33,321 nucleotides of DNA, taken from IMG/VR virus record IMGVR_UViG_3300025138_000176, positions 1-33,321 of that record. One strand, 5' to 3'. Shown here piece by piece: positions 7,069-22,289 of the stretch (positions are counted from its first letter, which is position 1; every line of letters starts with the position of its first letter). The stretch comes from a virus (Duplodnaviria > Caudoviricetes). Made by a program: the position numbers and the translations under genes. Under the pieces are notes generated by a model, which saw nothing but the letters and a program-made list of their open reading frames with translations, was not told the origin of the DNA and ran no database searches.

Positions 7069-7478
7069 GAATAGGTTTAACTGCATCAACATTTGATTTA
7101 CTACATGCTGGCCACGTTGAAATGTTACGTGATGCGAAAGCTCAATGTGATTATCTTATTTGCGCATTGCAAATCGATCCAAGCATTGATCGCGCTGAAA
7201 AGAATAAACCAGTTCAAAGTATTGTAGAACGATACACCCAGCTTCAAGCTGTTAGATTTGTAGATGAGATCATACCATATCTCAGCGAATTAGATCTTGA
7301 AGATATATTACAAATGAGAAAAATCGATACAAGAATTCTTGGTGTAGAATATCGCGATAAAGATTTTACAGGTAGAGATATTTGTAAAGCACGCGATATC
7401 GATTTATATTTTAATAAAAGAGATCACAGGTTTTCAACTAGTGGTTTAAGAGAAAGAGTACAAAATGCAAGTAAGTGA
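7065..7478 (+). CDS. Glycerol-3-phosphate cytidylyltransferase (TagD)-like HxGH nucleotidyltransferase
   Basis: STFDLLHAGH, ERYTQL.AVRFVDEI and a C-terminal RDHRFSTS motif. Confidence 0.88.
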   Translation: MRIGLTASTFDLLHAGHVEMLRDAKAQCDYLICALQIDPSIDRAEKNKPVQSIVERYTQLQAVRFVDEIIPYLSELDLEDILQMRKIDTRILGVEYRDKDFTGRDICKARDIDLYFNKRDHRFSTSGLRERVQNASK

Positions 7479-8148
7479 TATTCGAAACTATTTTATAAAG
7501 GAGTTAAAAGATGAAAGATTCACAACCGACAAAACTGGGCAACGTACAATTGAAATGCTTGGCAGTTCATTTAGCGCAGACGAACCTTCCATCTTCGGAG
7601 TTCCAAACGAGGAGTACATTAATGCAGAAATACTCTGGTATATGTCTCACAGCCCTAATATTAATGACATTTATAGTGGTGATCGTGAACCTCCCTTAGC
7701 ATGGAAATATAGCGCAAATAAATATGGTGAAATAAATTCAAACTATGGTCTGCTGATTTATTCTGATAAATACTTTCAGCAATATGGTATGGTACTCGAT
7801 GAGCTGATTAGAAACAAAGACAGCCGTCGAGCTTCTATGATATACCAAAGACCATCAATATGGTTGGACTATGAAGAAAATGGTAAAAACGATTTTATAT
7901 GTACTAATGCCGTTACTTATTACATTCGCGACAGTAAGCTACACGCAGTGGTTCAAATGCGCTCAAACGATGTCGTGTTCGGATATAAGAATGACTATGC
8001 TTGGCAGCTTTATGTTTTAAAACAATTAATAAAAGATTATAATGACTTTCATTCGTTATATGAAGATAGTCAAATTTCAATTGGTAATATAACTTGGCAA
8101 GTTCAAAACTTGCATGTATATGAAAAGCATTTTGATCTTGTCAAATAA
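7465..8148 (+). CDS. 42: dCMP hydroxymethylase (T4 gp42-like, thymidylate synthase superfamily)
   Basis: DFICTNAVTYYIRD...MRSNDVVFGYKNDYAWQ...NLHVYEKHF closely follows T4 gp42. It has Asp (KND) at the specificity position, which selects dCMP rather than dUMP. Confidence 0.88.
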   Translation: MQVSDIRNYFIKELKDERFTTDKTGQRTIEMLGSSFSADEPSIFGVPNEEYINAEILWYMSHSPNINDIYSGDREPPLAWKYSANKYGEINSNYGLLIYSDKYFQQYGMVLDELIRNKDSRRASMIYQRPSIWLDYEENGKNDFICTNAVTYYIRDSKLHAVVQMRSNDVVFGYKNDYAWQLYVLKQLIKDYNDFHSLYEDSQISIGNITWQVQNLHVYEKHFDLVK

Positions 8149-16602: not shown

Positions 16603-16865
16603 CAAATAAATTTACACAGGACATGACTGGCACAGGACATTACGTATACGGAATTGAATATGAACCACGAATAGAAGATCCAGTGATTGTTGCTCGTTTT
16701 GATACTAAAGACGAAGCAGAACAACATATGGAAAAAATCAAAACTCAAAATCCTAAAGCGGCAAAACACCATAGAATTATAGAAGAAACAACTGATGATG
16801 AACCACAAAGGTATTATGATTGGATGTTATGGAAACTAAAACAAAAGAAAGAAGAAGGACAATGA
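16599..16865 (+). CDS. Hypothetical protein
   Basis: 88-aa ORF with GGAG RBS and ATGA overlap. Confidence 0.75.
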   Translation: MTNKFTQDMTGTGHYVYGIEYEPRIEDPVIVARFDTKDEAEQHMEKIKTQNPKAAKHHRIIEETTDDEPQRYYDWMLWKLKQKKEEGQ

Positions 16866-17548
16866 ATGTTAGGCTTATATCTTATTCCCAAACAAACACT
16901 TACAACGTCGGTGGATTATACGTCGGAAACGATATGCAAGAACTCATCGCGTATTGTGCCCGTGTCTCCAACCCATCAAACCAAATTAATGAAGAAACCT
17001 CGGAAAAATTATTACGATATCTCATCAAACACAAACACTGGTCGCCATTCGAAATGGTTAGTGCTTGCTTAGAAATTGAAACATATAGAGACATTGCAAG
17101 ACAAATTTTAAGACATAGATCGTTTTCATTTCAAGAATTTAGTCAAAGATACGCAGATCCAACAAAAGATTTCTCGTTAAATATAGATAATTTACGCAAA
17201 GCACGTCTTCAAGATACTAAGAATCGCCAGAACTCAATTGAAGTTGATGACGATAAATTACAACTTGAATGGCAGCAATCTCAAATGCGTATATATCATA
17301 TGTCAAAAAAAGAATATGATGCAGCAATCAAACTTGGTATTGCAAAAGAACAAGCTCGAGCTTTATTACCAGAAGGCATTACTGAATCTCGTTTATATAT
17401 GAATGGATCTATTCGTTCTTGGATTCATTATGTTGAATTAAGGTCTGGTCCAGAAACTCAAAAAGAACATAGAGACATTGCAATTGCTTGTGCTAAAGCC
17501 ATTCAACCTATATTTCCTATGATAGATGAGTTTAGAATCTGCAAATAA
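16862..17548 (+). CDS. thyX: Flavin-dependent thymidylate synthase
   Basis: HWSPFE, RHRSFSFQEFSQRY, EQARALLP and TQKEHR. Start placed at the ATGA overlap at 16862. Confidence 0.97.
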   Translation: MNVRLISYSQTNTYNVGGLYVGNDMQELIAYCARVSNPSNQINEETSEKLLRYLIKHKHWSPFEMVSACLEIETYRDIARQILRHRSFSFQEFSQRYADPTKDFSLNIDNLRKARLQDTKNRQNSIEVDDDKLQLEWQQSQMRIYHMSKKEYDAAIKLGIAKEQARALLPEGITESRLYMNGSIRSWIHYVELRSGPETQKEHRDIAIACAKAIQPIFPMIDEFRICK

Positions 17549-19638: not shown

Positions 19639-20117
19639 GTCAGTCTCGAATACCATACTGAACCAATTGCTAATCCAAGAACAAGAAATATGATACCAGC
19701 AACTATGAAAACTTGTTTAATCTCAATCCATAATTGTTTATCTGCTTTTATCTTTTCAATCTTTGCAAGTCTTATCGACTCTTTTTGTTCTGCAATTCGT
19801 CTTGCTCTTTCTTCTAAGATTTCTTTCCAAGTGTTTGGTCCAAAGCGTAAGTTAATCATATTTGCAACTTCTTGTAACTGCTCTGCAGCTAATTTTGCAT
19901 CAATAGTTTCTCTTGCAATATGTGATGTATCAAACTGTTCTTTAACACCAAGACCTCGTTTGCCTTGTTTTTTATTGACTTCTTGCTGACCTCTTAGTAA
20001 ACCATCGATGGCTCCGCCGATTTCACCAATATCTTTACATGTGTCAATATTAGATTTTATAAAATCTACGCTACTTTTTACGAGTGCGATTCCCGCTAAT
20101 ATTTCTGCTATTGGCAT
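19635..20117 (-). CDS. Hypothetical coiled-coil membrane protein
   Basis: 160 aa with a C-terminal TM helix and a GGAG RBS. Confidence 0.8.
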   Translation of the reverse strand: MPIAEILAGIALVKSSVDFIKSNIDTCKDIGEIGGAIDGLLRGQQEVNKKQGKRGLGVKEQFDTSHIARETIDAKLAAEQLQEVANMINLRFGPNTWKEILEERARRIAEQKESIRLAKIEKIKADKQLWIEIKQVFIVAGIIFLVLGLAIGSVWYSRLT

Positions 20118-20343
20118 TTTCTTGTATCTCCGGTGACTTATCTACAAATTTAGGTTTTTGCCTCATTGTAAGTTGAGCTTTAAATTTATTTTGTACAGGT
20201 TCTTTGTTCTTGCTTTTTCCAATCATAATATTAATTGCTTTATATCCGTCGCCTAAGAATATCAATAATCCGTCTAAATACAATTTAGATTTGCTTGAAA
20301 CGGATAAATCGATAACTAAATTTTCATGCCTATAAATCGCCAT
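20071..20343 (-). CDS. Hypothetical late protein (probably leaderless)
   Basis: ATG at 20343 lies 5 nt downstream of a minus-strand TATAAATA. The longer start in the ORF track runs into the riboswitch and is unlikely. Confidence 0.65.
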   Translation of the reverse strand: MAIYRHENLVIDLSVSSKSKLYLDGLLIFLGDGYKAINIMIGKSKNKEPVQNKFKAQLTMRQKPKFVDKSPEIQENANSRNISGNRTRKK

Positions 20344-20348
20344 AATAC

Positions 20349-20356
20349 TATTTATA
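20349..20356 (-). promoter_or_regulatory. T4-type late promoter (gp55)
   Basis: Exact TATAAATA at the head of the minus-strand operon. Confidence 0.78.
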
Positions 20357-20375
20357 ATATTAAGGTCATTTTTTG

Positions 20376-20383
20376 TATAAATA
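20376..20383 (+). promoter_or_regulatory. T4-type late promoter (gp55)
   Basis: Exact TATAAATA 9 nt upstream of the riboswitch aptamer. Confidence 0.78.
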
Positions 20384-20392
20384 ATATTAACA

Positions 20393-20436
20393 CGTTCACC
20401 CGAAAGGGCGGAAGTAGGCAATCGCTGAAGGAACGC
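20393..20436 (+). ncRNA. Glutamine-I riboswitch aptamer (glnA RNA motif)
   Basis: CGUUC-A-[CCC GAAA GGG]-CGGAAGUA-[GGC AAUC GCU]-GAAG-GAACG-C. This gives a P1/P2/P3 three-way junction with an E-loop (AGUA/GAA) matching the glnA consensus. Confidence 0.88.
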
Positions 20437-20464
20437 ACCTAACTTTAAAAGAGGAGGGTGGCAT

Positions 20465-20560
20465 ATGACTTACAGACCATTTCAATGGAAGATGTTTGTT
20501 AAAGCACGTAATATTGCTTTAGTTCATAAACTGTTAAATTACCGTAGACATTATGCATAA
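20465..20560 (+). CDS. 31-aa basic peptide under riboswitch control (MTYRPFQWKMFVKARNIALVHKLLNYRRHYA)
   Basis: Strong GAGGAGG RBS immediately downstream of the aptamer. Confidence 0.7.
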   Translation: MTYRPFQWKMFVKARNIALVHKLLNYRRHYA

Positions 20561-20565
20561 AGTTG

Positions 20566-20594
20566 TGTACTTTTGTACATTTTTGTGTTATAAT
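20566..20594 (+). promoter_or_regulatory. sigma70-type promoter for tmRNA
   Basis: TGTACT-17 bp-TATAAT with extended TG. Confidence 0.7.
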
Positions 20595-20600
20595 ATATAG

Positions 20601-20995
20601 TATATAACGATGAAACAGAGCGAAAGGTTTGCTGGACTCGGGGGCGGTACCCGACAGCTCCACCATAAAAACTTGAAAGGTACATTATGAGTAAAGATAA
20701 ATATCACCATTGGGTATATGCTGCAGACGACAGCATGAATAAGACGTTGAAGTTTATAATATATTGCGTGTATGCTTATGGTGCATATATTTTTTTTAAT
20801 GAATTATTTACCAAGTTTTTCTGATGGGGCTGAAATAGGATCGACAGAGACGAAATAGCGATGTGGAGTTATCCGGATGTAAGCTCGGTTAATGCGAACA
20901 AAACGATAAATGCAAACGATAATTTTGCACCTCAAGAGTTAGCGCTAGCCGCTTAATTCTTATGAGCCAGCCGGAGCTTGGAAACAGAATCCGGC
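20601..20995 (+). ncRNA. ssrA: Circularly permuted (two-piece) tmRNA, alphaproteobacterial type
   Basis: The acceptor piece ends GGAC-UCGGG-GGCGGUA-CCCGA-CAGCUCC-A-CCA (20665). The coding piece starts GGGGCUGAAAUAGGAUCGAC (20826). The 7-bp acceptor stem has G3:U. The tag frame 20912-20956 reads ANDNFAPQELALAA*. The 5' boundary is approximate. Confidence 0.93.
20687..20824 (+). CDS. 45-aa single-TM peptide encoded in the tmRNA intervening segment
   Basis: GAAAGG RBS; MSKDKYHHWVYAADDSMNKTLKFIIYCVYAYGAYIFFNELFTKFF; one base separates the stop from the tmRNA G1. Confidence 0.65.
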   Translation: MSKDKYHHWVYAADDSMNKTLKFIIYCVYAYGAYIFFNELFTKFF

Positions 20996-21004
20996 ACTTT
21001 TTTT
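20970..21004 (+). terminator. 3' hairpin of the tmRNA coding piece / intrinsic terminator
   Basis: GCCGGA...TCCGGC stem followed by AC and a T7 run. Confidence 0.7.
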
Positions 21005-21015
21005 AGGAGATCAAC

Positions 21016-21153
21016 ATGGAGAAGCCTAAAAAAATATGTGTAGTTTGTAATATATATCTTGATGAAGTTTTAAAAGATGTTTATAAATGTCCAAAGTGTA
21101 GGGCAATATTGAATGAGAGATTGGATGATAGGAAAGATAGGAAAGAAAATTGA
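21016..21153 (+). CDS. 45-aa zinc-ribbon peptide
   Basis: AGGAG RBS; MEKPKKICVVCNIYLDEVLKDVYKCPKCRAIL..., i.e. CxxC-13-CxxC. Confidence 0.78.
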   Translation: MEKPKKICVVCNIYLDEVLKDVYKCPKCRAILNERLDDRKDRKEN

Positions 21154-22289
21154 GTAGAAGTGTAGCTATAATAGGTGCCGGTGTTGCCGGAATTACTACA
21201 GCATATTTTTTAACACAAGAAGGATTTAAAGTAAGAGTATTTGATCCGGAAGGCATAGCAAAACAATGTAGTTATGCCAATGGTGGACAGGTTTCAGTGT
21301 GTAATGCTGAAGTTTGGAATACCTATGGCAATATCGCTAAAGGTCTCAAATGGATGACAAAGAAAGATGCTCCATTATATTTTAGAGCAGATCATTGGTC
21401 ATGGGATAAAATCAAATGGATTGCTGGTTTTATTGGAGCTACTGTTACAAATTCTTATGATAAGAATACTCGAAAAACTATTGAATATGCATTAAGAGCT
21501 CGTGAGTTGATGAAAGAAGTTAGTGATATTGACTATCATCAAAACAAGTGTGGCATATTACATATTTACAAAAACCAAAAATCTTGGGATAAAGCAAGAC
21601 AGACTCTAGATAGATTTAAAGATACTGGTTGGGGTAGAGTCGAAATAAGCAATAAGTTTTTAGATGCATACAATATTAAAGATGATGGAGTGATAGGTTG
21701 TACGTATACTGCTGAAGATTCAGTTGGAGACATTTTTACTTTTTGTAATAAGTTATCAGCAAGAATGGAAACTTATAATGACTATAAGTTAATAAATAAA
21801 AGAATAGATAAAGAAGATTTAGAAAATTTACAGAAAAAATATGATGATGTGGTTGTATGCGCAGGAGCTTATACTAAATATTTAGTACCAAGCTTAAATG
21901 TTTATCCTATAAAAGGTTATTCAATTACTTTTAACAATCAACCAAAAATACCAACTTTATCTGTTTTAGATGATGACGCAAAAATAGTTGCTTCACCTTT
22001 TGCAAATGGTGTATTCAGAGTCGCTGGAACTGCCGAATTAGCTGGATGGAATCACGATATTACTATGAATAGAATTACACCACTTTCTAAATGGGTTGAA
22101 GACAATACTTTTGTAGAAGCTCATAATACTGAATTTAAAAAGTGGGCTTGTTTAAGACCAATGACACCAAATATGTTACCTATTATTAAAAAGGTAAATG
22201 GGTTATGGGTAAACACTGGAGCCGGTCATTTAGGCTGGACTATGGGAATGGCATTAGCGGAGAAAATAACATGGAAGATAATGAATTAG
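21150..22289 (+). CDS. dadA: D-amino acid dehydrogenase (DadA/DAO family FAD oxidoreductase)
   Basis: IIGAGVAG, SYANGGQ, YPIKGYS, RVAGTAE, WACLRPMTP and NTGAGHLGWT. TTG start. Confidence 0.88.
   Translation: MSRSVAIIGAGVAGITTAYFLTQEGFKVRVFDPEGIAKQCSYANGGQVSVCNAEVWNTYGNIAKGLKWMTKKDAPLYFRADHWSWDKIKWIAGFIGATVTNSYDKNTRKTIEYALRARELMKEVSDIDYHQNKCGILHIYKNQKSWDKARQTLDRFKDTGWGRVEISNKFLDAYNIKDDGVIGCTYTAEDSVGDIFTFCNKLSARMETYNDYKLINKRIDKEDLENLQKKYDDVVVCAGAYTKYLVPSLNVYPIKGYSITFNNQPKIPTLSVLDDDAKIVASPFANGVFRVAGTAELAGWNHDITMNRITPLSKWVEDNTFVEAHNTEFKKWACLRPMTPNMLPIIKKVNGLWVNTGAGHLGWTMGMALAEKITWKIMN

Follow-up and report, generated by a model that had tools for sequence, protein, structure and literature searches.

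The closest described relative of the switch reported here is the leader of gifB, the gene of the glutamine synthetase inactivating factor IF17 in Synechocystis sp. PCC 6803. In the accessible text of Klahn 2018 (PMC6212724), gifB is regulated ON by glutamine, and it is postulated that, as long as glutamine is unbound, a linchpin C is paired to the ribosome site; binding forms the G23-C60 pair (PMC6212724 and PMC5393176, in their available parts). IF17 and its companion IF7 (gifA) are small, basic proteins that act through arginines and are unstable when free, with IF17 being made at high glutamine (PMC6316151, in the portion accessible). A different aptamer class, the glutamine-II or downstream-peptide riboswitch of marine picocyanobacteria, precedes short conserved ORFs of 17-100 aa, of YRG/DUF4278 type, in the available part of Weinberg 2010 (PMC2864571). 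Cyanophage glutamine riboswitches are in print (PMC9964418 and PMC9602691, as far as their accessible text goes), none was found in the phage set of PMC7029224 by its authors, and in 2022 glutamine riboswitches were reported in the phages Melnitz, Mosig and AG-345-P14 (Buchholz 2022, PMC9004378). The accessible sections of that paper assign control of ssrA to the Melnitz switch and name no peptide, speculate on glutamine control of lysis, and state that the OM43 host of Melnitz lacks glnA.

The locus compared with these systems lies in a 33,321-nt stretch of viral DNA (from here on, the window), a 33-kb fragment of a T4-like phage that encodes a family B DNA polymerase, UvsX, a DnaB-like helicase and two thymidylate synthases. 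Its features, in window coordinates, are the following.

20071-20343, minus strand: 90-aa ORF behind the divergent TATAAATA box
20349-20356, minus strand: divergent TATAAATA box, before the ATG of the 90-aa ORF
20376-20383, plus strand: putative T4-type late promoter box TATAAATA, from the sequence and its enrichment in relatives
20391-20439, plus strand: glutamine-I (glnA) riboswitch aptamer, Rfam RF01739
20393-97 with 20431-35, plus strand: aptamer P1, from the RF01739 alignment
20399-401 with 20406-08, plus strand: aptamer P2 with GAAA loop, from the same alignment
20409-16, plus strand: aptamer junction CGGAAGUA, from the same alignment
20417-19 with 20424-26, plus strand: aptamer P3, from the same alignment
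20411 and 20436, plus strand: linchpin bases G20411 and C20436 (G23 and C60, counted on the crystal construct printed in PMC5393176)
20436-20460, plus strand: expression platform hairpin CACCU-AA-CUUU/AGAG-GA-GGGUG, starting at the linchpin C and covering the ribosome-binding site
20453-20457, plus strand: Shine-Dalgarno GGAGG, 7 nt ahead of the ATG
20465-20560, plus strand: gene of a basic peptide of 31 aa with net charge +7 and a single predicted helix; its family, with members of 31-38 aa, is found in phages only
20584-20594, plus strand: extended -10 element (TG-n-TATAAT) in the sequence, the tmRNA's own promoter, outside the cassette
20604-20998, plus strand: two-piece (permuted) alpha-type tmRNA with a tag ending ALAA (RF04321, 118.8 bits; RF01849, 114 bits; ARAGORN)

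Three Rfam matches were obtained in the window, two to tmRNA models and one to RF01739, and RF01704 (glutamine-II, downstream-peptide) gave none. A glnA-type aptamer had been proposed in the original prediction, with a cmsearch as its check, and the search recovers it at 53.6 bits (cut-off 35, E 3e-9), the match covering positions 1-53 of the 53 in the model with no broken pair. The three-way junction P1-P2-P3 is present with CGGAAGUA and both linchpin bases, and compensatory pair types are seen in P3 across the peptide family described below. With the gifB leader (Klahn 2018, PMC6212724, in part) the window switch shares the aptamer family, the proposed linchpin-C platform and a small basic protein behind it. 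It differs in being phage-borne, in its T4-type late box and in its very short P2 and P3; its ORF is of 31 aa without DUF4278 or IF7-like similarity, and nothing here points to a cyanobacterial host.

The late promoter that had been proposed ahead of the aptamer is supported as one of late type, and support for TATAAATA as its box comes from enrichment at this position in relatives and not from the AT-rich window alone, where the box is at chance level (5 seen against 4.88 expected). Among 104 unique viral upstream regions, 63 have TAAATA no more than 25 nt ahead of the first aptamer, most often 6 nt 5' of it, whereas the share in random windows is 2.8%. The motif is found within 22 nt upstream in 42 of the 44 members of the 31-aa peptide family, the two misses being second aptamers of tandem pairs. 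In the window the box stands a few bases ahead of a transcript start that the sequence predicts near 20389, four bases upstream of the first paired C of the aptamer. The late promoter consensus is TATAAAT in the accessible methods of PMC9004378. No late sigma factor gene was found among the 50 ORFs scanned in the 33-kb fragment. The two TATAAATA boxes of the window point away from each other and, 19 nt apart, make up an inverted repeat of 14 nt. Because its ATG is only 5 nt after the divergent box, the 90-aa minus-strand ORF is likely to be a leaderless late transcript, and the same 5-nt spacing occurs in two relatives (L149 and L155) with the spacer letters changed. A 116-aa antisense ORF (20071-20421) overlapping the aptamer was discarded; in relatives it is the 90-aa gene starting at 20343.

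Behind the aptamer, the hairpin that had been predicted to bury GGAGG by use of the aptamer's terminal C stands as the lowest-energy fold of its stretch (-9.3 kcal/mol, z -2.74, matched by 3 of 200 shuffles). Removal of its first C leaves a fold of -6.1 kcal/mol (z -1.55), the cost of freeing the linchpin C being 3.2 kcal/mol. All 91 unique viral platforms have C immediately behind the aptamer core, and that C is paired in 63 of the 91 folds against 25.4 in shuffles, whereas plain pairing of the ribosome site is no better than in shuffles (65 of 91 against 63.9). A GGAG..TG arm is carried by 62 of these platforms, with 29 of the 91 lacking it, and the C-G end pair is present in all 62. Of the arms, 60 show full pairing with the 5' arm of the same platform, where 5000 permutations gave 40.1 on average and 48 at most; C-G/U-A exchanges are seen at arm positions 3-5. 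When only the 14 distinct arm types are considered, the observed pairing count is reached in 2 of 5000 permutations, and these permutation counts are not independent events because the viral sequences are related. The pair counts were not taken from the MAFFT platform alignment, which misplaced the 3' arm. By both hairpin fold and covariation, the platform links the 3' end of the aptamer to the gene.

In the mechanism we propose, the late-type promoter would start the mRNA at the aptamer, and bound glutamine would form the G20411-C20436 pair, pulling the linchpin C out of the ribosome-site hairpin. With that end pair lost, GGAGG would open and translation would rise. Judged from the gifB switch of cyanobacteria, binding of glutamine together with an ON polarity is highly probable for the window switch. 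It may act as a dimmer, because the hairpin still folds in the absence of the C, and it is likely that the rest of the hairpin persists and that the response is graded. Polarity depends on the platform, since OFF is more plausible where the aptamer precedes glnA or amtB in marine alphaproteobacteria.

The gene behind the platform is the basic 31-aa ORF of the original prediction, at the place given there, and the proposed check of its conservation in phages came out in its favour. A search with a pattern of ribosome site plus first codons, which did not ask for the aptamer, returned 43 further viral loci, and the aptamer is present in all of them as in the window (44 of 44). A platform-only metagenome scan without peptide constraint added 12 family sequences; one metagenome locus (L320), whose contig is exactly as long as the window, was excluded from the peptide counts. 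Over codons 10-27, which lie outside the search pattern, 30 unique sequences give a pN/pS of 0.35; the reading frame is intact in all 30, and the five other frames are stopped in 20-30 of them. Because of this pN/pS and the broken state of the other frames the peptide can be taken as coding and, judged by its evolution, it is real. An untranslated ORF, or an element surviving as a relic, would agree with the absence of the exact peptide among 15 billion called proteins, but is at odds with this constraint and with the covarying platform, and we regard it as extremely improbable. Gene callers often skip ORFs of 31 codons.

Across 44 distinct sequences, M1, W8, F11, A14, R15, A18 and R27 are invariant, R4 and R17 are near-invariant, and AlphaFold2 predicts one helix spanning residues 5-30 (pLDDT 85). 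The family has no match in PHROGs, Pfam (E 10), NCBIfam, PDB sequences or the ESM Atlas; an NCBIfam match at E 0.1 was judged to be chance, and the PDB sequence search gave one match at E 0.95. It was not found in cultured phages by tblastn, and is absent from the 20, 187, 401 and 266 bacterial genomes searched (hand-picked aptamer carriers, and the orders of MarineAlpha5, Pelagibacteraceae and SAR86 bins), where two of two positive controls were detected; one match in the set of 20 (E 0.009) was rejected for its internal stop. A link to 63-65 aa "RFDH" riboswitch peptides (12%, E 0.0025, 0 of 60 column shuffles) was kept as a lead only. It is weakened by a subgroup chosen post hoc and by a reversed control that scored equally in the HMM search, and two sister subgroups of these peptides score under 1% against the family. 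In four relatives (L130, L131, L133 and L153), the convergent gene behind the peptide has an LAA-like tail and a stop that touches or overlaps the peptide stop.

The family also has a bias at its C-terminus: Ala is the last residue of 29 of the 44 peptides and Ala-Ala the last two of 20, whereas the corresponding numbers among 283 neighbouring ORFs are 15 and 8. We take these ends to be a likely ClpXP degron, with the peptide likely to be short-lived through fast turnover by way of its C-terminal Ala. The ends could also be the function itself, the peptide being a protease substrate or decoy that loads ClpXP and, together with the phage tmRNA, slows the removal of tagged proteins at high glutamine. 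That they occur despite length variation of 31-38 aa and that phage tmRNA tags end in AA too would suit such a decoy, but the conserved residues are within the first 27 positions and not in the tail, 15 of 44 members have no Ala end, and Ala ends number only 0 of 64, 6 of 40, 0 of 18 and 0 of 17 in the four other large riboswitch-peptide clusters, which leaves the decoy improbable.

The arrangement of aptamer, platform and short ORF extends well beyond this family. A viral survey with an aptamer-only pattern found 119 loci in the 7 of 64 parts scanned, from which about 1100 are estimated overall. A ribosome site and ATG stand behind the last aptamer in 111 of the 119, and the 108 complete ORFs all measure 15-90 aa, 104 having a net charge of at least +3 and 26 carrying YRG. 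At least ten unrelated peptide clusters use the same aptamer in phages, and one shared peptide target is therefore not a given. The cassette is demonstrably movable between gene neighbourhoods, at least nine different ones being represented, mostly with the cassette facing a convergent gene.

Independence of the cassette from the tmRNA is likewise established. A TATAAT box stands at the equivalent site before ten of the ten tmRNAs shown for this phage group, whatever lies upstream. A tmRNA is present in at least 9 of the 43 family loci (by ARAGORN, many loci being incomplete), directly 3' of the peptide in 4 of the 43 (two by core motif only), and in 7 other loci 1.2-2.6 kb away or on the opposite strand. 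It has been published for Melnitz that the riboswitch controls the tmRNA (PMC9004378, accessible text), which would make the ORF incidental. In the window the tmRNA does begin about 45 nt past the peptide stop, and no terminator was found between the two, so that read-through into the tmRNA is possible. Such control is nevertheless very hard to sustain given the rarity of the direct arrangement, the tmRNA's own TATAAT box, and the inability of a ribosome-site hairpin to gate an untranslated RNA directly. Two further observations concern the tmRNA of the window: its intervening segment is about 140 nt longer than in relatives' contigs, and inside that segment is a 45-aa ORF with a hydrophobic second half (20687-20824, plus strand).

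The cultured phages give a further view of the same question. Like the phage of the window, the Methylophilales phage Melnitz and the Pelagibacter phage Mosig of Buchholz 2022 are T4-like and marine, and carry an RF01739 aptamer, a two-piece alpha-type tmRNA and a short basic ORF behind the aptamer. In Melnitz (L163:16399-16565, MZ577097.1) the aptamer lies just 3' of ssrA; behind it come the same hairpin (-9.2 kcal/mol) and a basic ORF of 32 aa that lacks annotation, the record annotating an opposite-strand, TTG-started ORF (gene 89) and not the sense ORF. The Mosig aptamer stands 19 kb away from ssrA; a CATAAATA box precedes it, a basic ORF of 51 aa follows, and its platform hairpin is weak (-2.8 kcal/mol). 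The aptamer thus fronts a peptide ORF in both of the cultured phages checked, and the published link between the Melnitz switch and ssrA looks misplaced, the phage switches having likely been credited to the wrong gene. The Melnitz and Mosig peptides belong to other families with no match to that of the window, and in Melnitz no TAAATA box directly precedes the aptamer. If OM43 lacks glnA, as Buchholz 2022 states, the Melnitz peptide would have no glutamine synthetase target there.

The DNA polymerase of the window has as best cultured matches phage C48C1 (53% identity), for which no paper was found, and cyanomyophages (45-47%); identity to Melnitz is 45% and to four cassette-bearing relatives 59-66%. 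Close relatives occur in RNA runs that are marine; they are present as contigs only, one extending 223 nt beyond the promoter box, and so show neither transcription nor start site. The window tmRNA groups with phage tmRNAs only, with 90-96% identity to seven related phage tmRNAs, 63% to that of Melnitz and 56-65% to the five bacterial tmRNAs aligned, after 6 of 11 were dropped when the search pattern missed their coding piece. Searches aimed at host assignment gave at most 43% identity for the FeS-assembly protein among 301 proteobacterial genomes and no S21 in 28 related viral records. The alpha-type tmRNA favours an alphaproteobacterial host without proving it, because Melnitz pairs a tmRNA of this type with an OM43 host. 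The neighbouring tmRNA of the original prediction is recognised by both Rfam and ARAGORN, but the case for finding an alphaproteobacterial host notable is weakened: the aptamer pattern gave 121 loci in 10 of 64 parts of the bacterial genomes, and 64 of these are proteobacterial by record title. Directly 3' of the tmRNA the phage carries a FAD-dependent D-amino-acid dehydrogenase-like gene (21150-22289, plus strand) with thousands of environmental relatives, followed by genes for a GNAT acetyltransferase and the FeS-assembly protein. Its two thymidylate synthases are of ThyA-like (7465-8148) and ThyX (16820-17548) type; the former, which adjoins sugar epimerase and UDP-glucose dehydrogenase genes, is possibly a nucleotide-modifying paralogue.

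The bacterial aptamers that were checked precede glutamine synthetase or ammonium transporter genes, and in marine alphaproteobacteria and SAR86 the aptamer is natively before glnA and amtB. Tandem glutamine-I aptamers stand directly before glnA or amtB in L222, L173, L243, L168, L437 and many marine alphaproteobacterial single-cell genomes, and where there is no GlnE match such tandems are likely to be a native OFF switch outside cyanobacteria; in the accessible text of Klahn 2018 (PMC6212724) such cases are known only from environmental DNA of unknown affiliation. GlnE matched in none of 20 aptamer-bearing marine proteobacterial genomes, which are incomplete and were hand-picked from the 64 loci, and the covalent off-switch of glutamine synthetase may thus be absent from those cells. 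Two kinds of bacterial locus differ from this picture. In one proteobacterial bin (L219:33-1604), tandem aptamers stand upstream of lrgA-lrgB together with a basic peptide of 36 aa that belongs to a phage-type family, with cellular genes around. In some cyanobacteria (L216, L268, L277 and L279), a hydrophobic peptide of 35 aa that resembles neither IF7 nor IF17 follows the aptamer.

We therefore consider the cassette as a whole. Our leading explanation, which we hold tentatively, is that of a movable glutamine-switch cassette, expressed late and switched ON by glutamine, whose peptide brakes host nitrogen assimilation via glutamine synthetase. A short-lived, basic, helical peptide would act as the brake, most likely by binding the enzyme. 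The proposal is made because of the analogy to IF7 and IF17 and because the sampled hosts appear to be without GlnE. A target somewhere in nitrogen assimilation has somewhat less than an even chance of being correct, and glutamine synthetase itself, though the candidate we would name, is on balance unlikely to be that target. The analogy is one of kind: IF7 and IF17 resemble the peptide in being small, basic and arginine-bearing, but are longer, are known only from cyanobacteria, and share neither sequence nor profile similarity with it. The peptide matched no Pfam family at E 10 and failed the PF14105/YRG test, in which two controls (L183 and L235) did match PF14105. In hhalign, comparison with YRG/DUF4278 peptides gave 1.5-2.5%, and comparison with 12 cyanobacterial proteins, which we presume to be IF7-like from a motif, gave a probability of 0.13%. 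It thus differs also from the peptides behind the glutamine-II aptamers.

The same switch might serve a peptide that binds PII or AmtB instead of glutamine synthetase. PII was found in 15 of the 20 aptamer-bearing marine proteobacterial genomes, its gene directly precedes the tandem aptamers and glnA in L437, and AmtB is natively encoded behind the aptamer. Set against this are the missing YRG motif in the peptide family and the SAR11 strain HTCC1062, host of Mosig, which is without GlnB and GlnK in the accessible text of PMC3870248; the Mosig peptide is of another family. On this evidence a PII or AmtB target is unlikely.

A close rival to the nitrogen brake is that the peptide, behind the same ON switch, acts in lysis timing, late translation, or RNA or ribosome binding, and so tunes phage development to match the burst to the nitrogen supply. 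The late-type promoter would fit this, as would the basic, aromatic single helix. Arginine-rich RNA-binding peptides are basic single helices too, and may be likened to the phage peptide. The phage-only distribution of the family (no match in sets of 187, 401 and 266 bacterial genomes, the positive control being recovered) points the same way, as does the different riboswitch peptide upstream of lrgA-lrgB at one bacterial locus; lysis control by glutamine is what PMC9004378, in its accessible part, speculates upon. Conversely, the peptide matches no ribosomal, holin or antiholin family and has no stretch resembling a transmembrane segment (mean hydrophobicity over 11 residues no higher than 0.28), and every named bacterial gene behind the aptamer belongs to nitrogen assimilation. 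We consider developmental tuning possible, at roughly the same low probability as glutamine synthetase being the target.

Phage glutamine riboswitches were already known. In the searches made of a library without most subscription papers, neither this peptide family nor a phage inactivator of glutamine synthetase was found to be described; such ORFs may be listed in the supplementary tables of Weinberg 2010 or Buchholz 2022. The nitrogen brake has a more far-reaching form, which we put forward with considerable doubt. Marine phages of heterotrophic hosts would have evolved their own glutamine-synthetase inactivating microproteins, unrelated to IF7 and IF17, made late, gated by a riboswitch and used in hosts without GlnE; this would be the first metabolite-gated viral nitrogen brake, with some form of the cassette in about 1100 viral contigs.

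The finding names the likely output of phage glutamine riboswitches as a short peptide instead of the published tmRNA. The layout is shared by two phage-host pairs in culture, Melnitz with OM43 and Mosig with SAR11, which makes the question accessible at the bench. Should the peptide prove to inhibit glutamine synthetase, such peptide control would not be confined to cyanobacteria, and viruses would steer the flow of nitrogen through bacteria that are abundant in the ocean. Should it act in lysis timing instead, the cassette would be a nutrient-sensing timer of a lytic phage.
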